From positions 77,748,001-77,812,000 of the forward strand of contig CM059432.1 in the NCBI GenBank assembly GCA_030390025.1: DNA of 64,000 bases, in the 5' to 3' direction. This DNA is from Squalus acanthias. Taxonomy: Eukaryota. The notes below the pieces were generated by a model. It saw nothing but the letters and a program-made list of their open reading frames with translations, ran no database searches and was not told the origin of the DNA. Position numbers and translations under genes: made by a program. Shown here in pieces: positions 12,258-41,105 of the stretch. Numbering within the stretch: the first letter of the stretch is position 1; the number at the start of each line of letters is the position of its first letter.

Positions 12258-12670
12258 AGAAATAAAAACAGAAAATGCTGGAAATACTCAGCAGGTCAGG
12301 CAGCATCTGTAGAAAGAGAAACAGAGTTAACGTTTCAGGTCGATGACCCTTCGTCAGATCTGGAAAAAGTTGGAGATGTAACAGGTTTTTAAGCAAGTGT
12401 AGGAACAGGGAAAGGGGGGAGGAGAGGAAAGAACAAAAGGGAAGGTCTGTGATAGGATTGAAGGCAGGAGCGATTAAGAGACAAAAGGGATGCTGGTGCA
12501 AGGCAAAAGGAGATGGTAATGGGACAAGTTAAGAAGCAAAAGATGAGTCTAGATGAAGTGTAAATGGCAATGGCAGAATCATCAACAGCTGCCATGTGGA
12601 AAAAAAATAGGGGCAGAGGTTATGGTCTGAAATTGTTGAACTCGATGTTGAGTCCAGAAGGCTGTAAAGT
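12258..12670 (-). mobile_element. Penelope 3' fragment (ORF end LQPSGLNIEFNNFRP* plus pLTR)
   Basis: Homologous to 25030-25440. Confidence 0.88.
12324..12361 (-). ncRNA. Minimal hammerhead ribozyme motif
   Basis: The minus strand reads CTGACGA-agggtc atc gacct-GAAACGTTAACT, with one mismatch in stem I. Confidence 0.65.
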
Positions 12671-13219: not shown

Positions 13220-16200
13220 TGGGCTTTAGTTTCCTGGATCACTGGGTCTGCTTCTGGGGAAGGTGGGACCTGTACAAGTCGGACAGGTTGCACCTGAACC
13301 GGAACGGGACCAACATCCTTGCGGGGAGGTTTGCTAGTACTGTTGGGGGGGGGGGGTTTAAACTAACTTGGCAGGGGGATGGGATACAGAGTGGAGCTGT
13401 AGTAGGGGGTGATGCATAGCCAAATATAGAGGAAAAAACAAGTCAGCCTGGAAGGCAGAGCAAATATGTAATGGCACAAGGGAGTATGGCAAGGCTGGAT
13501 GGCATTTATTTTAATGCAAGGAGTCTTGCGAGTAAGGCAGATGAATTGAAGGTGTTGATGAACACATGGGAGTATGATATTGTTGCTATCACAGAGACAT
13601 GGTTGAGGGAGGGGCAGGACTGGCAGCTCAATATTCCGGGGTATAGAATCTTCAGGCAAAACAGAGGGGGGTGTAAAAGAGGAGGGGGTGTCGCAATATT
13701 AATCAAGGAGTCAATTACTGCTGTAAGGAGGGATGATATCTCAACAGGTTCTTCTAATGAGGCCATATGGGTAGAACTTAAAAACAAAAAAAGGGGCAAG
13801 CACTTTGCTGGGAGTGTACTATAGGCCCCCAAACAGTCAGGGGGAGATAGAGGAACAGATATGTAGGCAAATCTCAGAGAAGTGTAGAAATAATAGGGTA
13901 ATAATAGTAGGGGATTTCAACTTCCCCAATATTAACTGGGATAGTCAGAGTGTGAAAGGCTTAGAGGGTGCGGAATTCTTAAAGTGCATCCAGGAGAGCT
14001 TTTTGAGCCAGCATGTAGAAAGTCCTACAAGAAAGGGGGTGGTACTGGACCTAATTCTAGGGAATGTAGCCAGGCAAGTGGTAGAAGTGTCAGTAGGAGA
14101 GCATTTTGGTGACAGTGACCATAATTCGGTGAGATTTAAGGTAGTCATGGAAAAGGACAAAGATGGACCGGAAATAAAGGTTCTAAATTGGGGGAAGGCC
14201 AATTTTAATATCTGGCCAAAGTGGACTGGGATCAGCTACTTGTAGGAAAATCCACATCAGAGCAGCGGGAGTCTTTCAGAAAGGAAATAGAGAGTACAAC
14301 GCCAACATGTTCCCGTAAAGGTCAAGGGTGGGACCAACAAACCCAGGGAACCCTGGATGTCAAGGGATATACAAGAATGGATTAGGAAAAAAAGGGATGC
14401 TATTGGCAGATACAAAGAACTAAAAACAGTGGAAGCCCTAGAGGAGTATAGAAAGTGCAGGGGGGTACTTAAAAAAGAAATTAGGAGAGTGAAGAGGGGG
14501 CATGAAAAAACACTGGCGGGCAAAATAAAGGAAAATCCCAAGGTGTTTTATAAGTATATTAAGGGCAAGAGGATAACCAGGGAAAGAGTAGGGCCCATTA
14601 GGGACCAAAGTGGCAATGTGTGTGTAGAGCTGGAAGATGTAGGTGAGGTTTTAAATGAATATTTTGCATCTGTGTTCACTATGGAGAAGGACGATATAGG
14701 CATAGAAATCAGGCAAGGGGATTGTGATATACTTGAACAAATTAGTACAGGAAACTCTTTATTAACCGGCACCGACGGGACCGGCGTGGTGCCGGTTTAT
14801 CGAAAGTACCGGATAACGGAGAGTTATATCTACCGAGGCTATTTTTAACAAAGAAAAATAAATAAATCAAGAAATGTGCAGTATACTTCCGACAGCGCCA
14901 GGAGGCCGAGTAGTGGCACTTTTGAAAACTACCCCTACTGACTAAATTGGCGTTCGCGGACTCGGACTCGGGATCGGCAACATTGCCGGTTATTTGAGGA
15001 GTTTTCGGAGTACTCGGCGTTCGCGGAGACTCGACTGCGACTCGGCAACATTGCCGGTTATTTGAGAGGAGTTTTCGGAGGATGATTTTTGCCGGTTAAG
15101 CGAGAATTCCGGATATTTGGGTGCCGGATAAACAAAAGTTTCCTGTATTGAGAGGGAGGAGGTGCTAGCAGTTTTAGCGGGCTTAAAAGTGGATAAATCC
15201 CCAGGCCCCGACAAGATGTATCCCAGGCTGTTGTGTGAGGCAAGGGAGGAGATTGCAGGGGCTCTGACACAAATTTTCAGAACCTCTCTGGCCACAGGGG
15301 AGGTGACAGAGGACTGGAGAACAGCTAACGTAGTGCCATTATTCAAGAAGGGTAGTAGGGATAAACCAGGGAATTACAGGCCAGTGAGCCTAACATCAGT
15401 GGTAGGGAAATTATTGGAAAAAATTCTGAGGGACAGAATTAGTCTCCACTTGCAGAGGCAAGGATTAATCAAGGATAGTCAGCATAGCTTTGTCAGAGGG
15501 AGATCATGTCTGACCAATTTGATTAAATTTTTCAAGGGGGTGACTAGGTATGTGGATGAGGGTAGTGCAGTTGATGTAGTCTACATGGACTTCAGTAAGG
15601 CTTTTGACAAAGTCCCGCATGGGAGACTGGTCAAGTAAGTAAGAGCCCATGGGATCCAGGGCAATTTGGCAATTGGATCCAAAATTGGCTTAGTGGCAGG
15701 AGGCAGAGGGTGATGGTCGAAGGTTGTTTTTGTGACTGGAAGCCTGTGTCCAGTGGTGTACCGCAGGGATCGGTGCTGGGTCCTTTGCTGTTTGTAGTGT
15801 ACATTAATGATTTAGATATGAATGTAGGAGGTATAATCAGTAAGTTTGCAGATGACACGAAAATTGGTGGAGTGGTAAATAGCGAGGAGGGAAGCCTCAG
15901 GCTACAGGACGATATAGACGGGTTGGTTAGATGGGCAGAACAGTGGCAAATGGAATTTAACCCTGAAAAGTGTGAGGTGATGCATTTTGGGAGGACTAAC
16001 AAGGCAAGGGAATACACAATGAATGGTAGGACCCTAGGAAGGACAGAGGATCAGAGGGACCTTGGTGTGCATGTACATAGATCCCTGAAGGCAGCAGGAC
16101 AGGTAGATAAGGTGGTTAAAAAGGCATATGGGATACTTGCCTTCATTAGCCGAGGCATAGAATATAAGAGCAGGGAGGTTATGATGGAGCTGTACAAAAC

Positions 16201-16755
16201 GCTAGTTAGGCCACAGCTGGAATACTGTGTGCAGTTCTGGTCGCCACACTATAGGAGGGATGTGACTGCATTGGAGAGGGTGCAGAGGAGATTCACCAGG
16301 ATGTTACCTGGGCTGGAGTGCTTCAGCTATGAAGAGAGACTGAACAGGCTGGGGTTGTTTTCCTTAGAGCAGGGAAGGCTGAGGGGGGACCTGATTGAGG
16401 TGTACAAAATTATGAGGGGCATAGCTAGGGTATATAAAAAGGAACTTTTCCCCTTAGTAGAGGGGTCAATAACCAGGGGGCATAGTTTCAAGGTAAGGGG
16501 CAGGAGGTTTAGAGGGGATTTGAGGAAAAACTTTTCCACCCAGAGGGTGGTTGGAATCTGGAACTCACTGCCTGAAAGGGTGGTAGAGGCAGGAACCCTC
16601 AACATTCAAGAAGTATTTAGATGAGCACTTGAAATGCCATAGCATACAAGGCTACGGACCAAGTGCTGGAAAATGGGATTAGAATAGACAGGGCTTGATG
16701 GCCGGTGCAGACACGATGGGCCTCTTTCTGTGCTGTCTAACTCTATGACTCTATG
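13220..16755 (+). mobile_element. CR1 LINE with ORF1 C-terminus, near-complete disrupted ORF2 (APE-RT) and 3' tail
   Basis: ORF1 esterase-like end (WDLYKSDRLHLN). Endonuclease motifs NARSL, ITETW, GDFN, SDH; RT motifs GVPQGSVLGP, FADD. Several frameshifts and stops. Tail CTCTATGACTCTATG. Confidence 0.95.
14748..15145. mobile_element. Tc1/mariner (pogo/Tigger-like) MITE inserted in a CR1
   Basis: TIRs CAGGAAACTCTTTATTAACCGGCACC (22/26 match), TA on both sides, and CR1 sequence rejoins across it. Confidence 0.88.
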
Positions 16756-20839: not shown

Positions 20840-21001
20840 CAATAGTGCAGAGTAAACAACTTGAGGATTTGGGTGATCTAGAAACAGGATCAATCCAGGC
20901 AGACATCCCTGATCCTGGACAATCGCTCGTCTGTTTAAGGGGTCAGATGCTAAATCTTGCAGCTGGTTTACTACTGCTAGTGCATCAGGCTCCCCACTCA
21001 T
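20840..21001 (-). CDS. ARMC1: ARMC1 first coding exon (54 codons; whole exon 21053-20840)
   Basis: Translates [54 protein letters not shown], matching the vertebrate ARMC1 N-terminus. Acceptor ttattttatttttacag precedes 21053; donor TTG|gtaagt follows 20840; phase 0. Confidence 0.96.
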
Positions 21002-21339
21002 TGTGCCACCATCCACTATGCCATATGTTTTAAGCAATTTTCTCAATAATGCACTGTAAAAATAAAATAAGCATGAATTAGACCATTAACAGGTTCAATA
21101 TTAATATTTGGTCAAATTTGACAGATCATTTATTTAAATCCCTTCAATAACCAATTAAATTCATACTTAAGCCATTAATGTAGGCAACATTCTGGTTGAT
21201 AATGAGGCACAGTTTTGCATGTTACTGTATATTTTCAAGTAAATGTCATTTGCAGTATCAGATACAAGTGCAATTTTGCACTTACTGTGCAAAGTACTAA
21301 ACCTAGGGTGAAGCAACAAGGTCTACACTGCAGGAAAAC

Positions 21340-21495
21340 ACCTTAAAACCTACCTCTTTCACCAAGCTTTTGGTCACCTGTCCCAATATCTCTATGTGGC
21401 TTGGTGTCAAATTGTGTTTGATAATCGCTCCTGTGAAACACCTTGGGATGTTTTTACTACGTTAAAGGTGCTATATAAATGCAAGTTGTTGTTGT
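21340..21495 (+). mobile_element. L2-like LINE 3' tail
   Basis: CTTAAAACCTACCTCTTT...AAAGGTGCTATATAAATGCAAG(TTG)n, shared with the other L2 copies here. Confidence 0.75.
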
Positions 21496-21757
21496 GTGAT
21501 TCTAGGATCATATCCAAGGCCACTGGGGTTTATGATCTTCATGGAAAAATGGCTAGAACTGCAGCAAAGATCTGGGAATCCCATGTAATACAGAATTTGA
21601 TTTATTAATTCATTCACCATAAACCAATGGCCCTGATCATATTCTCCAGAAATAATAAAACTATAAAGATTACACACCACAAAACTCAACACATTGCAAC
21701 TACAATAAATTCACAAGTAACGAAAAAAATCTTTCCTGTCAAACATGCCTATTACTA

Positions 21758-21959
21758 TAGTCAAGATGTGGAGATGCAGGTGTTGGACTGGGGTGGACAA
21801 ATGTGAGAATTCGCACAACACCAGGTTATAGTCCAACAGCTTTATTTGAAATCACAAGCTTTCCCAGCGCTGCTCCTTCGTCAGGTCACCTGCCGAAAGC
21901 TTGTGATTTCAAATAAAGCTGTTGGACTAGAACCTGGTGTTGTGCGACTTCTCACATTT
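21758..21959. mobile_element. Miniature inverted Penelope-type pLTR remnant of a second family (65-bp hairpin)
   Basis: Arms 21799-21863 and 21895-21959 differ at 2 positions. The minus strand reads CTGACGA-aggagcagcgctgg-GAAAGCTT, a degenerate hammerhead. Outer duplication TATTACTA at 21750-21757 and 25449-25456. Confidence 0.7.
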
Positions 21960-22059
21960 ATTCGATAGCAAAATACTGCGGATGCTGGAAATCCGAAATA
22001 ACAACAGAAAACGCTGGAAAAACTCAGCAGACCAGGCAGCATCCGTGGAGAGAGAAAGA

Positions 22060-22098
22060 GAGTTAACGTTTCAGGTCGATGACCTTTCATCAGAACTG
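22060..22098 (-). ncRNA. Minimal hammerhead ribozyme motif (inverted-arm copy)
   Basis: Exact reverse complement of 25338-25376. Confidence 0.8.
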
Positions 22099-22801
22099 GG
22101 AAGAGCCGGAAATCAAATAGATTTAAGGCCAGGGTAAAGCTGGGAAAAGGGGGAGGGGATAAAGGAACAAAGGGGGAGATGAAGAGACATTAAGAGACAT
22201 TAAGAGATATGCAAGGCTAGAGGTGGTGTTAATGTGACAGATTAAGGCTGAATGAAGTGTGAAATCCACTGGCAGAATGAAGGACAGCTGCCAGCTTCTA
22301 GGAGGAAAAAAAAAAGGTGGGGGGGGGACAAATAAAAATAAAATATAAATGTGATTGGAGCTGAGGTTATGATCTAAAATTGTTGAACTCGATATTGAGC
22401 CCAGAGGGCTGTAGCGTGCCTAAACGAAAGATGAGGTGCTGTTCCTCGAGCTTACGCTGCGCTTCCGTGGAACAGTGTAATAGGCCGAGGACGGTGAGGT
22501 CAGAGTGGGAGTGAAGCGGTGAATTAAAGTGACAGGCCACCGGGAGCTCGGGGTCCCCCTTACGGACTGAACGGAGGTGTTCCGCAAAGCGGTCACCCAA
22601 TCTGCGTTTGGTCTCCCCAATGTAGAGGAGTCCACATCGTGAGCAGCGAATACAGTACACTAAATTGCAGGAAGTACAAGTAAATCGCTGTTTCACCTGG
22701 AAGGGGTGTTTGGGGCCCTGGACAGTGGGAAGAGGGGAGGTATAAGGGCATGTGTTGCATCTCCTGCGCGTGCACGGGAAGGTGCCGGGCGAAGGGGAAG
22801 G

Positions 22802-25080
22802 CTTCAACAACTCTTGGACACTAAAGCCCCTCCGGAACCTTCTTCCCCTTCACTTTCCTCTGACCCCCCTTCTCCCAATCTCACCCCCTGCCGCGTTTTC
22901 ACTATCCCCTCTGACCTTCCCCTCTCTGACTCCGAACGATCAGTCCTCAGCAAAGGCCTGAGCTTCATCCCCTTACGCCCCCATCTCAATGAATTTCGAG
23001 CTCGGCACGATGCTGAGCTCTTTTTCCGCCGCCTCCGTCTCCGTGCCCACTTCTCTGGCCAGGAGTCTTCCCCCCGCACGGCTGACCCTTTCTCCCGCTT
23101 TCAGAATTCTCATTCCACCTGGACCCCTCCCTCTGGCCTCTTACCCTCTCTTGATCTTTTCATTGCTAACTGCCGCCGTGACATCGGCCAGCTCAATTTC
23201 TCTGCTCCCCTCACTCACTCCAACCTACCTCCCTCTGAACTTGCAGCACTCCATTCTCTCTGATCCAACCCTGACATTGTCATTAAACCTGCTGACAAGG
23301 GTGGCGCTGTTGTTGTTTGGCGAACCGACCTCTACCTAGCGGAAGTTGAACGCCAACTCTCTGACACCTCCTCCTACCTCCACCTGGACCATGACCCCAC
23401 TACCGAACATCAAGCCACCGTGTCCAAGACTGTCACTGACCTCATCTCCTCTGGAGATCTTCCCCCCACGGCCGCCAACCTCATAGTTCCCCAACCCCGC
23501 ACAGCCCGCTTCTACCTCCTTCCCAAGATCCACAAACAGGACTGCCCCGGTAGACCCATCGTTTCAGCCTGTTCTTGCCCCACGGAACTTATCTCTTCCT
23601 ATCTCGACTCTATTTTTTCTCCCCTTGTCCAGTCTCTTCCCACCTACATCCGCGACTCTTCCGATGCCCTCCGCCATTTTAACAGTTTCCCGGCCCCAAC
23701 CGTCTCCTCTTCACTATGGACGTACAATCCCTCTACACCTCCATTCCCCACCAGGATGGCCTGAGGGCGCTCCGCTTCTTCCTTGAACAGAGGCCCAACC
23801 AGTCCCCATCCACCACCACCCTCCTCCGCCTGGCTGAACTTGTTCTCACATTGAACAACTTCTCCTTTGACTCTACCCATTTCCTCCAAATTAAAGGTGT
23901 TGCTATGAGTACCCGCATGGGTCCTAGCTATGCCTGCCTTTTCGTGGGATATGTGGAACACTCTTTGTTCCAGTCGTACTCGGGTCCCCTCCCTCACCTC
24001 TTTTTCCGGTACATTGATGACTGTATCGGTGCCGTCTCCTGCTCTCGCCCTGAACTAGAACATTTCATTCACTATGCTTCCAATTTCCACCCTTCCCTCA
24101 CCTTCACATGGTCCATCAATGACTCTTCCCTTCCCTTCCTCGACTTCTCCATCTCCATCTCTGGGGATAGGTTATTGACTAACATTCACTACAAGCCCAC
24201 TGACTCCCACAGCTACCTGGACTACACTTCCTCCCACCCCGCCTCCTGTAAGGACTCTATTCCATTCTCCCAGTTTCTCCGTCTCCGCCGCATCTGCTCT
24301 GATGATGCCACCTTCCATACCAGTGCTTCTGACATGTCTTCCTTTTTCCTCAACCGAGGATTCCCCTCTACCGTGGTCGACACGGCCCTCGACCGTGTCC
24401 GTTCTATCTCCCGCACTTCTGCCCTCACCCCTGCCCCTCCCTCCCGGAACCACGATAGGGTTCCCCTTGTCCTCACCTTTCACCTCACCAGCCTCCACAT
24501 TCAACGGATCATCCTCCGCCATTTCCGCCACCTCCAGCGTGATCCCACCACCAAACACATCTTCCCCTCACCTCCCCTTTCAGCATTCCGTAGGGACCGC
24601 TCCCTCCGCGACACCCTAGTCTACTCCTCTACCACCCCCAGCACCCCTTCCCCTTCGCCCGGCACCTTCCCGTGCACGCGCAGGAGATGCAACACATGCC
24701 CTTATACCTCCCCTCTTCCCACTGTCCAGGGCCCCAAACACCCCTTCCAGGTGAAACAGCGATTTACTTGTACTTCCTGCAATTTAGTGTACTGTATTCG
24801 CTGCTCACGATGTGGACTCCTCTACATTGGGGAGACCAAACGCAGATTGGGTGACCGCTTTGCGGAACACCTCCGTTCAGTCCGTAAGGGGGACCCCGAG
24901 CTCCCGGTGGCCTGTCACTTTAATTCACCGCTTCACTCCCACTCTGACCTCACCGTCCTCGGCCTATTACACTGTTCCACGGAAGCGCAGCGTAAGCTCG
25001 AGGAACAGCACCTCATCTTTCGTTTAGGCACTCTACAACCCTCTGGACTCAACATAGAGTTCAACAATTTCAGATCATAA
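22802..25080 (+). pseudogene. Penelope RT-GIY-YIG ORF, 5'-truncated with two lesions
   Basis: TGA at 23261-23263 (probable CGA>TGA; the frame continues as SNPDIVIKPADKGG) and one frameshift near 23685. Open from 23716 to 25080 (454 aa). Confidence 0.9.
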
Positions 25081-25337
25081 CCTCAGCTCCAATCACATTT
25101 ATATTTTATTTTTATTTGTCCCCCCCCCACCTTTTTTTTTCCTCCTAGAAGCTGGCAGCTGTCCTTCATTCTGCCAGTGGATTTCACACTTCATTCAGCC
25201 TTAATCTGTCACATTAACACCACCTCTAGCCTTGCATATCTCTTAATGTCTCTTCATCTCCCCCTTTGTTCCTTTATCCCCTCCCCCTTTTCCCAGCTTT
25301 ACCCTGGCCTTAAATCTATTTGATTTCCGGCTCTTCC

Positions 25338-25376
25338 CAGTTCTGATGAAAGGTCATCGACCTGAAACGTTAACTC
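25338..25376 (+). ncRNA. Minimal type I hammerhead ribozyme motif in the Penelope pLTR
   Basis: AGTT-CTGATGA-a-AGGTC atc GACCT-GAAA-CGTT-AACT: conserved core boxes, a 5-bp stem II, stem I AGTT/AACT, and palindromic ACGT in place of stem III. Confidence 0.8.
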
Positions 25377-25784
25377 TCTTTCTCTCTCCACGGATGCTGC
25401 CTGGTCTGCTGAGTTTTTCCAGCGTTTTCTGTTGTTATTTCTCACATTTATTACTAGGTGAAAAACACCATTTAATCAAGACCTAATGAAGAGACATGAA
25501 ACTCTCCAAACATTTCTCGTGCATTTTCACTGGACATGTTGAGGGTCTTGTTTTCTTCTAACTTTCAGAAATAACAAATCGAAGGACACATACTTAGCCT
25601 GTTGTCTAGAATAAACGGAGTTTAAACCAGATGTAAACACTAATGCAATGCGTGGGGTGAAGGGCCCGAGTCAAGCCTGACGATGTCTCAATACTCGGGA
25701 CGCAGCCCTCCGCCCGCAGGCCGCTTTATTGCAGAACTCCCCGTTCATCCCAGTTAACCTCCAACAGTCACGGCCTCGTCATAC

Positions 25785-25975
25785 CTTTAACACCCGACGC
25801 TTGTTTAACTCCTCGATTATAACCTGCGTTTACTGCTCCTCTGATCATTCACAGCCGCCAACAAATCCCATCCGCTTTAACCAGTCCAGTGACTCAATCA
25901 AACACTAACGATACCGATGCACTCCACAACTCCGCTCGCGTTCACCGAGCTTGCCCAGCGGCCCGGCCCTGCATA
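25785..25975 (-). other. ARMC1: Probable non-coding first exon of ARMC1 (start approximate)
   Basis: CpG-rich segment with a minus-strand donor AAAG|gtatga after 25785. The AUG exon has an acceptor, so an upstream exon must exist. Confidence 0.45.
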
Positions 25976-26259
25976 CTCCACTCCCTCAATCCCAGTTATG
26001 CCATTGGTTCATTTCCTCTCAAGCATTCCTGAGAGAATAGCCTATCGCACATCATGTTATTGCGTATAATTATCTGGCTCACCAGATTTTTTTTAAATAA
26101 AGGGAATCATATTAACTTAAACTGTATTAATTTTGAAAAATTGACTATAAAGTGTGTTTTAATGGTGTTGAATATATCCAGTCTGTGTTGAGAGGTATCT
26201 GAGTGTGCCGTGGGCGGTTGGGGCCGTGTCTGATTGGTGGGTTTGCCGGGCATGCGCCG

Positions 26260-26322
26260 GAAGCTGCTGTCGCGGGTCGCTCTGTGCCGGTTTGTGAGGT
26301 GCTCGAGCGCTCCAACTCCCAG
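26260..26322 (+). other. MTFR1: Probable non-coding first exon of MTFR1 (start approximate)
   Basis: Strong donor CCAG|gtgaga after 26322, just downstream of the CCAAT/NRF1/ETS cluster. Confidence 0.6.
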
Positions 26323-27909
26323 GTGAGAAACAGCGAGACCGGACCGGACCGGTGGCCACGGCTACGACTGACGGTGCCGGGTGTCCTGACTCGGGACAAA
26401 AAGAACGGGGGTTTATATGGAGCCCTTTTATCGAGAGTTCTGCTAATAACGAGGGAGAGCCCGCCCTGGTCGGTGGCTGTTTCGGTGCTAGCGGCCCCTC
26501 TCTCGGCCCGGGACGCGGGGCAGTGCTCTGCCTCCCTCTCTAATTATACAGTAACTGTTATTCATACGGCTGGCGGCAGGTCCAGGCTTCGTCTTGGCTG
26601 CTCCTGACACTGTCTGCAGGCCGGCGCTCCAGCTATTTGTCTGACCCGATGATTCATTCAATCTTACAAAGTTATTCCTTTTGCACATTTGGTTCTTGGT
26701 GATGGGAAAGGGTGGCACACAGTTATTTCTGTACGTTATGTAATTTTCTTTTTGCAGCTGGGCCGATCTATACATATGGTGAATATAATCTGCCAATTAC
26801 TAGTTAATATATCATAGGAATTGATCGGTCACATTATTTGGAAATGCAGGGTATCCCGTGTCTGCAAGGTTGTCAAAATATTTAGATATGTATTGGAAAA
26901 AGTGGCTTTTCTAAAATTGAAATTTGATTCCCGATTGCATTCAACAAACGTTATTGTAAGCGTCGATGTCGGCACAAATTGACATCTAGGTATTTACTAA
27001 TCCAACATTTGATGAAACGAGCATGATGGTCGTATTTAGTAAGGTGGAAAATAGGTGCTGCAAGTATCTTAAATGTTAAGCAGTGCATATTTCTTCGTTG
27101 GTCTGAGGATTTTTAATGAGTGAATTGATGTTCTATCTATACATTGGTAAAAACCATACATCTGTGTTCACTTGTCTCCAAACTTTACTCCCATTTGTCA
27201 TGTTCACATTTATAATGGAAATTGCCTATGTAAACCTGAAACTCCTAGAGGCACATTGATTGGGTTGAGTTGCTCAGTGATTTCCCCCCTCATATTTGCC
27301 TAATTAAAATCGGGCAGTTGCATAATGGAAAATTGTGGCATGAACTGCATCATCAGACAGGCTTGCTGTTTCCAAAATTTAAGAATCCTCTGTTAATGGC
27401 ATTTACTGCATTTGAACCTTATGTAATTTTTTTGTATAATTTTTCTATGTTACTGATTACTTTGTGAGGAGATTAATAGTTATTATGCATACTAAAACAG
27501 CTGAATTAAGGTTCCAATGTAAAGGAGGAGAGAGATGTGCAACATAACTTTCTAAATTGGTTATGGCCCAAAGAAACTAAATGCCATGGTTTGTGACTGG
27601 TTGTTAAGGCAATTGATTACATTATACTTTTTTTTTGTTTAGATTGCACATCTCAAGATACACTCAATGATGTGTGTGATATTGCTTAGTTCTTTGCATT
27701 CTGGGTGATCTGCACATATTCTGTTACAAATTCTCTCAGAGCAACTGTAACTAGCCCTAACTATGACAATTTCTTGTGCATCTAAGCTAGAACTGGTAAA
27801 TTCTGAGCACTACACAGTGTTAACAAGGTACAAATGCATAAAAACAGGTAGCATATGTTGAGAAATTTGAGTTTTAAATGCTTTTTAAAAATTTTATAAA
27901 GAAAAGTCA

Positions 27910-37199: not shown

Positions 37200-40100
37200 A
37201 ATGTCCCAAACTCCTCCATCACAATCCTGTTCCACCGGCAGGATAGGCCCACCAGTCAGGAAGGAGTGGCCCTGGGAGTCCTCAACATTGACTCTGGACC
37301 CCATGAAGTCTCATGGCTTGTGGTCAAGCATGGGCAAGGAAACCTCCTGCTGATTACCACCTACCACCCTGCCTCAGCTGATGAATCAATACTCCTCCAT
37401 GTTGAACACCACTTGGAAGAAGCACTGAGAGTAGCAAGGGCACCGAATGTACTCTGGGTGGGGGACTTCAATGTCCATCACCAAGAGTGGTTCAGTAGCA
37501 CCACTACTGACCGAGCTGGCCAAGTCCTGAAGGATATAGCTGCTAGTCTGGGCCTGCGACAGGTGGTGAGAGAACCAACACGAGGGAAAAACCTACTTGA
37601 CCTCGTCCTCGCCAATCTACCTGTCGCAGATGCATCTGTCCATGACCGCATTGGTAGCAGTGACCACCGCACAGTCATTGTGGAGACAAAGTCCCGTCTT
37701 CACACTGAGGACACCCTTCATCATGTTGTGTGGCACTACCACTGTGCTAAATGGGATAGATTCAGAACAGATCTAGCAGGTCAAAACTGGGTATCCAAGA
37801 GGCGCTGTGAGCCGTCAGCAGCAGCAGAATTGTATTCCACCACAATCTGTAACCTCATGGCCTGGCATATCCCTCATTCTACCATTACCACCAAGCCAGG
37901 GGACCAACTCTGGTTCAATAAGGAGTGTAGAAGAGCATACCAGGAGCAGCACCAGACGTAGCTAAAAATTAGGTGCCAACCTGGGGAAGCTGCAACACAG
38001 AACTACATGCATGCTAAAAAGCAGAAGCAGCATGCTATAGACAGGGCTAAGCGATCACACAATCAACGGATCAGATCAAAGCTCTGCAGTCTTGCCACAT
38101 CCATTCGTGAATGGTGGTGGACCATTAACCAACTAACGGGAGGAGGAGGCTCCATGAATATCCCCATCCTCAATGATGGTGGAGCCCAGCATGTGAGTGC
38201 AAAAAACAAGGCTGAAGCTACAGGCCAGTTAGCCTGACATCTGTTGTTGGGAAAATGCTGGAATCCAATGTTAAGGAAGTGGTATCAGGGCACTTAGAAA
38301 ATCATAACATGATTAGGCAGAGTCAACATGGTTTTATGAAAGGGAAATCGTGTTTGACAAATTTATTAGAGTTTTTTGAGGATGTAACTAGCAGGGTAGA
38401 TAAAGGGGAACCAGTGGATGTAGTATATTTGGATTTCCAAAAGGCATTCGATAAGGTGCCACATAAAAGCTTATTACACAAGATTAGGGCTCATGGGGTT
38501 GGGGGTAATATAGTAGCATGGATAGAGGATTGGTTAACGGACAGAAAACAGAGAGTAGTGATAAACTGATCTTTTTCAGGTTGGCAGGCTGTAACTAGTG
38601 GGGTGCCGCAAGGATGAGTGTTGGGGCCTCAGCTATTTACAATCTATATTAATGGCCTGGATGAAGGGACCGAGTGTAATGTATCCAAGTTTGCTGATGA
38701 TACAAAGCTAAGTGGGACAGTAAGCTGTGAGGAGAACACAGAGTCTGCAAAGGGATATAGATAGACTAAGTGAGTGGGCAGTAAGGTGGCAGATGGAGTA
38801 TAATGTAGGGAAATGTGAAGTTATTCACTTTGGTAGGAAGAATAGAAAAACAGAATATTTTTTAAATGGTGAGAAACATTCAAATGTTGGTGTTCAGAGA
38901 GATTTGGGTGTCCTTGAGCAAGAAACACAGAAAGCTAGCAAGCAATAAGGAAGGCAAATGGCATGTTGGCCTTTATTGCAAGGAAGTTGGAGTATAAAAG
39001 TAAGGAAGTCTTGCTACAATTGTACAGGGCCTTGGTGAGACCACACTTGGAGTACTGTGTATAGTTTTGGTCTCCTTATCTAAGGAAGGATATACTTGTC
39101 TTGGAGGCGGTACAACAAAAGTTCACTAGATTGATTCCTGGGATGAGAGGGCTGTCCTATGATGAGACATTGTGTAGAATGGGCCTATACTCTCTGGAGT
39201 TTAGAAGAATGAGAGGTGATCTCATTGAAACATACAAGATTCTGAAGGGGATTGACAGGGTAGATGCTGTGAGGTTGTTTCCCTTGGCAGGAGTGTCTAG
39301 AACTAGGGGACATAGTCTCAGGATAAGGGGTCAGCCATTTAAGACTGAGATGAGGAGGAATTTCTTCACTCAGAGGGTTGTGAATCTTTGGAATTCTCTG
39401 CCCCAGAGAGCTCTGAATGCTGAGTCTTTGAGTATATCCAAGGCTGAGAGAGATAGATTTTTGGACTCTAGGTGAATCAAGGGATATGGAGGTCGGGTGG
39501 GAAAGTGGAGTTGAGGTCAATGATCAGCCATGATCTTATTGAATGGTGGAGCAGGCTTGAGGGGCCATATGGCCTACTCCTGCTCTTATTTCATATGTTC
39601 ATATGTTTGCTACCATCTTCAGCCAGAAGTGCCGAGTGGAAGATCCATATCGGCCTCCTCCTGTGGTCCCCACCATCACAGAAGCCAGTCTTCAGCCAAT
39701 TCAATTCACTCCATGTGATATCAAGAAACGGCTGAGCGCACTGGATACAGCAAAGGCTATCGTCCCCGACAACATCCCAGCTGTCGTGCTGAAGACTTGT
39801 GCTCCAGAACTAGCCGCGCCTCTAGCCAAGCTGTTCCAGTACAGCTACAACACTGGCATCTATCCGACAATGTGGAAAACTGCCCAGGTATGTCCTGTCC
39901 ACAAAAAGCAGGACAAATCCAATCCGGCCAATTACTGCCCCATCAGTCTACTCTCAATCATCAGCAAAGTGATGGAAGGTGTCGTCGACAGTGCTGTCAA
40001 GCGGCACCTGCTCACTGATGCCCAGTTTAGGTTCCGCCAGGACCACTCAGCTCCAGACCTGGTTGTGGTGGTTGGTGGTCAATCATCACAGCCCCAGAAC

Positions 40101-41105
40101 ATCGCTGCAGGAGTTCCTCAGGGCAGTGTCCTAGACCCAACCATCTTCAGCTGCTTCATCAATGACCTTCCCTCCATCATAAGTTCAAAAATGGGGATGT
40201 TCGCTGATGACTGCACAGTGTTCAATGCCATTCGCAACTCCTCAGATAATGAAGCAATCCATGCCCGCATGCAACAAGACCTTGACGACATTCAGGCTTG
40301 GGCTGACAAGTGGCGGGCAACATTCACGCCACACAAGTGCCAGGCAATGACTATCCCCAACAAGCGAGAGTCTAACCACCGCCCCTTGACATTCAACGGC
40401 ATTACCATCGCCAAATTCTCCACCATCAACATCCTGGGGGTCACCATTGACCAGAAACTTAACTGGACCAGCCACATAAATACTGTGGCAACAAGATTAG
40501 GTCAGAGGCTAGGTATTCTGCGGCGAGTGTCTCACCTCCTGACTCCCCAAAGCCTTTCCACCATCTGCAAGGCACAAGTCAGGAGTCTGATGGAATACTC
40601 TACACTTGCCTGGATGAGTGCGGCTCCAACAACACTCAAGAAGTCAACACCATCTACAACAAAGCAGCCCGCTTGATTGACATCTCATCCACCACCTTAA
40701 ACATTCACTCCCTCCACCACCGGCATACCATGGCTGCAGTGTGTACCATCTACAAGATGCACTGCAGCAACTCGCCAAGGCTCCTTCGGCACCACCTCCC
40801 AAGCCCGCGACCTCTACCACCTAGAAGGACAAGGGTAGCAGGTGCATGGGAACACCATCACCTCCAAGTTCCCCCTCCAAGTCACACACTATCCTGACTT
40901 GGAAGTATATCGCTGTTCCTTCATCGTCGCTGGGTCAAAATCCTGGCACTCCCTCCCTAACAGCACTGTGGGAGTACCTTCACCACACGGACTACAGCGG
41001 TTCAAGAAGGCGGCTCACCACCACCTTCTCAAGGGCAATTAGGGATGGGCAATAAATACTGGCCTTGCCAGCGACGCCCAGATCCCATGAACGAATTTTA
41101 AAAAA
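37200..41105 (+). mobile_element. LINE ORF2 (APE-RT), second CR1-clade family, split by a CR1 insertion
   Basis: Endonuclease motifs VGDFNVHH, PTRGKNLLDLVL, SDH (37266-37961). RT motifs GVPQGSVL, MFADD (39603-40676), with an internal deletion near 40060. A-rich end at ~41100. Confidence 0.92.
38218..39605 (+). mobile_element. CR1 (HER1-like) 3' part, nested
   Basis: SQHGFMKGKSCLTNLLEFF and YLDFQKAFDKV motifs; tail ATATGTTCATATGTT; near-identical family to 18890-20275. Confidence 0.93.

Follow-up and report, generated by a model that had tools for sequence, protein, structure and literature searches.

A silent 40-nucleotide patch, very probably from a second subfamily, between the inverted arms of a Neptune/Nematis-like Penelope-like retrotransposon in Squalus acanthias

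Introduction

Penelope-like retrotransposons that bear an endonuclease fall into several clades, among which the linker motif CX2-5CxxC marks Neptune and Nematis, whereas Penelope and Poseidon have no linker zinc finger (PMC8557442). An architecture of inverted arms, a tail and a target duplication is already known for these elements (PMC8557442, PMC3846280), with the tail, of 30-40 bp, at one end (PMC11167929, PMC8557442), and short non-autonomous derivatives occur in vertebrates, including one cartilaginous fish (bioRxiv 10.64898/2026.07.22.740005). The protein of PAc, an element of Anolis carolinensis, extends both target strands, with its two start sites at the limits of the tail, and is a predicted dimer (PMC11167929). 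How the tandem and inverted ends get built is still an open question (PMC8557442, PMC11167929).

The group of the element described here is already known, and mosaics between subfamilies are already known in other retrotransposons. We found no report of mosaic arms in Penelope-like elements in the literature within our scope, outside which lie most subscription papers, including the 2005-2006 reviews. The present locus lies in a 64,000-nucleotide stretch of Squalus acanthias DNA (referred to here as the window), for which an original prediction had drawn attention to a cluster of silent differences between the two arms of the element. We compared the arms with each other, with further copies in the window and with related elements from a distant animal, and weighed the explanations that could account for such a cluster.

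Results

The element. Judging from its motifs, the element is an endonuclease-bearing Penelope-like retrotransposon of the Neptune/Nematis kind, a label that leaves the two clades unseparated. Its 5'-truncated RT plus GIY-YIG ORF lies on the forward strand at 22802..25080, with DKG at 23294, YIDD at 24010, CX4CxxC at 24673-24699 and VYC..YIG at 24787-24831, and it is broken by a stop codon at 23261-23263 and a frameshift near 23690. The Pfam GIY-YIG domain scored above the cut-off on the arm peptide (E 7e-05) and RVT_1 below it (E 0.014); both domains are present in homologues, and the layout is that of a single ORF, though the copy in the window is broken. Across 27 aligned sequences, the CCHH signature, with its two cysteines between GIY and YIG, has C374, C377 and H396 invariant and H412 nearly invariant, and the linker motif, CTRRRCNTC, has C331 and C336 invariant and C339 nearly so. 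The presence of this linker motif likens the element to Neptune/Nematis and sets it apart from Penelope/Poseidon, from which the motif is absent; the label "Penelope" that it had been given hence holds for the group only. Among the matches listed, the nearest named relatives are shark and ray proteins at 59-72% identity, and none of the best 120 matches listed in each of three protein searches exceeded 78% identity.

The window contains a single long near-perfect inverted repeat, 21995-22801 versus 24646-25441. The right (direct) arm, 24646..25441 (+), comprises the GIY-YIG region, the 3' UTR and a hammerhead-like motif, and ends without a tail 96 nt past the ATG of that motif, while the left (inverted), 5'-truncated arm, 21995..22801 (-), ends at +128. 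The left arm alone carries a tail of 32 nt (21963..21994, -), into which the reading frame opened within the hammerhead-like motif runs on. Inverted arms aligning over 807 columns, together with a 32-nt tail on one of them, correspond to the pLTRs and optional tail of endonuclease-bearing Penelope-like elements. A 14-nt target-site duplication is found on the forward strand at 21949..21962 and again at 25439..25452, its two occurrences in the window, the first 3 nt of the right copy being common to the 3' end of the element. By motif match, a minimal hammerhead-like core lies at 25343..25371 (+) in the right arm, with its ATG at 25346, and its mirror copy at 22065-22093 (-) in the left arm. 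The core boxes and their spacing fit the minimal motif (as in PMC4209133), minimum-energy folds give no hammerhead, and an Rfam scan returned 0 matches at the gathering score; a cut 26 nt past the ATG, as predicted, would reproduce the spacing published for the element of the anole. The head-to-head junction at 22793-22806 forms a tiny palindrome (four bases, one spacer, complement) and recalls the junction palindromes described for rotifer elements (PMC3846280).

The insertion lies within the right end of a second Penelope-like element (21758..21959), which is older, small, inverted and of a different family, the arms of which differ at 2 of 65 sites, 18 nt apart, and which has an 8-nt target duplication of its own (21750-21757 and 25449-25456). 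The older element also has its own hammerhead-like core (21884, -) and a tail-like extension on its left arm, so that both elements have the tail on the inverted arm. The large element ends about 750 bp upstream of a likely MTFR1-family gene; a CpG-rich promoter-like stretch occupies 26200-26600, a likely first-exon splice donor lies near 26323, and an exon at 45986-46387 matches Pfam Mito_fiss_reg (E 2e-18). Several LINE-type copies with AP endonuclease and RT pieces are found elsewhere in the window, at 13400-16600, 37200-40700 and other places.

The silent patch. When the right arm was aligned locally to the left arm in reverse complement, 807 columns resulted (24646-25441 against 22801-21995). 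The arms differ by six substitutions, at (right/left) 25032/22415, 25038/22409, 25047/22400, 25053/22394, 25056/22391 and 25071/22376, where the codons read ACT/ACG, CAA/CAG, GGA/GGG, AAC/AAT, ATA/ATC and TTC/TTT, respectively. All six are third positions, spread over 14 codons, and the last 16 residues are the same from both arms (TLQPSGLNIEFNNFRS, then stop). The right-arm haplotype of this patch occupies 25032..25071 (+) and the mirror haplotype of the left arm 22376..22415 (-). The alignment reproduced the original prediction of six synonymous substitutions within 40 nt site for site, as well as the claim of no other substitution, the UTR included, as all 756 of the 756 remaining aligned bases match. 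What had gone unmentioned are the left-arm-only tail and two slippage-type UTR indels, both longer in the left arm, namely an extra T in a T run at 22315 and 10 nt duplicated in tandem at 22198-22207. Divergence between the arms does not exceed 0.4%.

The clustering of six changes in 40 of 796 nt has P = 1.3e-6, a post hoc value with a large margin, and the probability that all six would be synonymous under random mutation is 2e-4 to 6e-4 for the coding part of the arm and 1e-4 to 2e-3 for the patch codons alone. The substitutions are of mixed types, with no single mutational signature, on which ground editing or deamination was rejected as their origin. Local direct or fold-back templating was likewise rejected, as no 9-mer covering a variant base recurs within 21000-26500. 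Codon usage is uninformative as to which haplotype is native (log10 ratio -0.4); the ATA codon of the right-arm patch occurs a single time elsewhere in the ORF. Of about 10 synonymous sites in the patch, 6 differ, which points to another subfamily, rather than a sister copy, as its source, and silence at every change would follow if both subfamilies had diverged under selection on the protein. Read from its codons, the source of the patch must have evolved under coding constraint, in a once-functional subfamily, and have been a different template from the rest of the arm. We consider it highly probable that the patch represents genuine sequence of a second subfamily, and the earlier suggestion of a different functional template agrees with changes that are all synonymous and a divergence of between-subfamily size.

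Neutral-divergence controls. A protein scan of bacterial genome assemblies yielded 17 loci of related elements, apparently animal contamination (L001-L017, on contigs CBDDTI01, CBDHDM01 and CBDAUV01); 15 of the 17 come from one assembly, which points to contamination by a host. These loci, from another, distant animal, served as controls only, and a search of bacterial assemblies with a 3'-end motif for the window element's own family found 0 copies. Neighbouring copies that overlap in coding sequence form seven pairs, of which six are inverted and one is direct (L003), and which include L007, possibly partly artefactual; together they showed 17 synonymous versus 49 non-synonymous differences, scattered. 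The count omits L009, where the 25-nt match is spurious, and, for L003 and L014, uses the coding overlaps but not the alignments confined to the UTR. Compared with 17 of 66 in the controls, six of six synonymous changes in the patch gives P = 6.5e-4 (Fisher). These control pairs, with the P values for clustering and synonymy, bear out the earlier view that neutral decay is insufficient. Among the 153 pairs formed by 18 segments of the control family, none had six synonymous-only differences in 45 nt, and 15 had four or five; 14 of these 15 involve one diverged-subfamily copy, which indicates that dense silent differences mark a comparison between subfamilies. The 3' ends of the control family form two groups, at about +193-199 and +244-256 from the stop codon. 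In L007 (128-3260), which has inverted arms of 1501 nt, all 22 differences lie within the leading 680 nt, the final 824 nt having no difference, a pattern that, beside a palindromic contig end, likely reflects assembly fold-back or recent homogenisation.

Third copy, similarity island and hairpin. A third copy, which belongs to another subfamily, comprises a whole 3' end at 12259..12670 (-), beginning at the equivalent of position 25030 and ending, without a tail, at the equivalent of 25441. Its extent had been given as 12620-12670, which proved too short; that it shares states with each arm was correct, with the right arm matched at four of the six patch sites and the left arm at two. It differs from both arms at two further synonymous sites and, over 45 nt, has 4 mismatches to the right haplotype and 6 to the left, so that the three haplotypes are about equally distant; these mismatches and its own private states rule it out as donor of the patch. 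A fourth family fragment, 75 nt of 3' end at 154-228, is 87% identical and adjoins a stretch that resembles a SINE head.

The third copy and the right arm share a cross-subfamily similarity island at 25030..25090 (+), where 54 of 61 positions are identical (89%). Downstream, identity drops to 20%, then rises to about 60% and, around the hammerhead motif, to 90 of 102. The identity profile of the third copy implies that a donor diverged to the same degree would be swappable cleanly only in two islands, 25030-25090 and that around the hammerhead. The patch lies wholly within the 61-nt island, which likely bounds the putative foreign tract to about 40-70 nt. The start of the third copy falls within 2 nt of the first arm difference, for which the chance is about 2% under assumed length distributions, a post hoc figure. 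In the control family, none of 15 measured 5' ends lies near the equivalent position, -48 from the stop codon; these loci come from a distant animal and, having been found via motifs further upstream, are biased to long copies.

A hairpin with a 7-bp stem and a 6-nt loop at 25044..25063 (+) is present in the right arm, in the left arm (where one A-U pair becomes G-U) and in the third copy. Five third positions within the stem never break pairing, and 7 of the 10 codons with the third position outside the stem vary. The stem is retained in 2% of random synonymous recodings, and folding z-scores are only -1.9 and -1.3. The hairpin is possibly a cis element, kept as it is across three subfamily haplotypes, and a possible pause site for the reverse transcriptase.

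State of the donor unit. The segment between the arms contains the stop codon at 23261, the frameshift near 23690 and single-step changes at 23345, 23908 and 24484, together about 1% of informative sites, a count that rests on homologues only 50-72% identical. Single-step changes were counted only at codons conserved in at least 85% of homologues, and 24118, below thresholds, was left out. With lesions at this density, either post-insertion decay or two donor units would have been expected to leave about 15 scattered substitutions between the arms (8 if two lesions are counted), and 0 were seen; the conditional P of this outcome is 0.002, 0.009 or 0.04 for four, three or two lesions, respectively. 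The lesions between the arms, combined with arms that show no scattered differences, favour a single dead donor unit over two pLTRs of the same donor, and the simplest reading of the sequence would be that one unit of an already dead copy moved in trans, recently. Deviations at conserved codons number 0 of 33 in the arm versus 4 of 157 between the arms, and the arm count is compatible with later homogenisation, which is not seen in the neighbouring older arms (21758-21959) or in the control arms.

Discussion

That the patch arose by template switching or by a short gene conversion, as the original prediction had proposed, stands insofar as these are the two leading mechanisms, and the available evidence does not separate them decisively. 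The reading that we prefer, at a probability a little short of one half, is that the reverse transcriptase, while making one arm, jumped to RNA of another subfamily and back, and so brought in the patch. By analogy with the in vitro work on the anole element, the two arms would be two cDNAs primed from both cut target strands at start sites 32 nt apart (+96 and +128). The template would have been one repeat unit of a broken copy, so that the protein would have been supplied by another element, the RNA of which may have been in or near the same particle. The cDNA of one arm would have reached the ORF end, a place where identity between the subfamilies is about 89% and where the enzyme may pause at a small conserved hairpin. 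The enzyme would then have crossed to the second RNA somewhere from 25072 to about 25090 and copied 40-70 nt of it; the return, at or just before 25031, may reflect an end of that RNA at the same point. Flanking identity as short as this is a better fit to a jump by a reverse transcriptase than to homologous recombination. Double template jumps have been reported for LINEs (PMC2104539, PMC13174262). Against a template switch, two homologous jumps within 70 nt are not known from Penelope-like elements, and a conserved RNA end near -48 from the stop codon receives no outside support from the 5' ends of the control family. With the third copy as a stand-in for the donor, crossovers would fall in stretches of template similarity, a result that conversion predicts as well.

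Conversion of one arm at the DNA level after insertion, from an ectopic copy of another subfamily, would explain the shortness of the tract, its bounds and the match to the 5' end of the third copy equally well, given that short 3' copies of that kind offer just a 61-nt similar stretch and would limit the tract; a genomic copy like the third one would set these bounds on converted sequence and on mis-mapped reads alike. Homologous repair is nonetheless poorly served by about 60 nt at 87-89% identity, some non-synonymous changes would be expected from an old genomic donor and none is present, and arms at most 0.4% apart leave little elapsed time, short of homogenisation. No patch is present, either, in the longer hammerhead island (90 of 102 identical, and shared by both other family copies of the window), which speaks against an assembly or polishing error as well. 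ATT motifs, the preferred cut of the anole endonuclease, lie 26-43 nt downstream of the patch, and non-allelic conversion between transposon copies is documented (PMC8230782, PMC6598467); on balance we regard conversion as rather unlikely. An error in which reads or k-mers of an abundant related subfamily replaced the true bases of one arm would likewise confine silent differences to the similarity island. Polishing is reported to bring in sequence from other repeat copies (PMC12016036), and the control contig L007, with partly identical arms and a palindromic contig end, suggests that such distortions occur. Neither haplotype looks majority-like, however, as their states private with respect to the third copy number 2 and 4 and the right-arm ATA is rare; a donor diverged as the third copy is would offer no long shared anchor downstream; and the junctions show no disturbance, nor do the tail, the two target duplications or the nested older element, whose arms keep their differences. 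A polishing error consequently seems quite improbable to us.

The possibility that the arms derive from two non-identical repeats of one tandem donor RNA, which the original prediction had put forward as an example, would push the divergence back by one generation, and it fares poorly against the absence of scattered differences, of which 8-15 would be expected between the units of a decayed donor (conditional P 0.002-0.04). In its fullest form, an upstream pLTR of the other subfamily would have started near 25030, with the two cDNAs passing from it to the ORF end at opposite edges of the patch in a strong-stop-like manner; the third copy would then be a cDNA halted at the RNA end. Partial tandems are the active form in Drosophila virilis, with the transcript start inside the upstream pLTR (PMC2377424), and the anole protein requires, in its template, the initial 172 nt of the ORF (PMC11167929), a stretch found at a pLTR-ORF junction. 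An initiator-like word is present at 25030, but it is one of 15 such words in the arm, the scheme requires an earlier recombination plus two transfers, the control family shows no fixed 5' boundary, and regeneration of the pLTR by reverse transcription has been argued against (PMC2377424). We therefore hold a tandem donor to be very doubtful. Chance, clustered error-prone repair or editing has nothing in its favour beyond the post hoc choice of the finding, and with a joint P far below 1e-8, mixed substitution types confined to third positions and controls that show the neutral pattern, its probability is close to negligible.

The original prediction further held that the patch may record how the inverted ends are built; it is rather the tail and the target duplication that record end building, and the patch may have arisen accidentally, either as the element inserted or later. 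A broader and, in our view, unlikely extension of the template switch is that particles with two RNAs recombine by retrovirus-like homologous copy choice, with a hotspot in the last 16 codons (hairpin pause, pLTR transcript start). If this copy-choice reading were true, inverted arms would form a genome-wide record of both cDNAs of each integration, and patches would recur at the same place. If a template switch as such is correct, the locus would provide direct evidence for participation of a second subfamily's RNA in one insertion and for movement of dead copies in trans, and comparing arms with each other would become a cheap genome-wide assay. As a single locus with three live alternatives, the patch is a good lead rather than a result.

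The proposed swap of a homologous tract with neither gain nor loss of sequence resembles the copy-choice recombination of LTR elements. With LINE template switching and twin priming, the locus would share mosaic insertion by an enzyme that moves between RNAs and two cDNAs from opposite ends of the target, but LINE chimeras join unrelated RNAs end to end, whereas here 40-70 nt would have been exchanged for their homologous counterpart (PMC2104539, PMC13174262). Alu non-allelic gene conversion similarly replaces subfamily-diagnostic positions at one locus; it takes place after insertion, while the tract in the window is very short and its putative donor about 13% diverged (PMC8230782, PMC6598467). 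PAc, a Poseidon element and thus of another clade, is like the present element in an ORF start inside the hammerhead-like motif, a cut predicted 26 nt downstream, a tail delimited by two 3' ends, and an AT-rich target ending in ATT, and differs in its start sites, reported at 111-118 nt into the ORF, compared with ends at +96 and +128 in the window (PMC11167929). The closest likeness is to Neptune/Nematis, with an RT followed by a C-terminal GIY-YIG, DKG, CCHH and a CX2-5CxxC linker, and with an inverted 5'-truncated copy, a tail of 30-40 bp at one end and a hammerhead-like motif; the difference is the cross-subfamily patch between the arms, which the available text of that account does not describe (PMC8557442).
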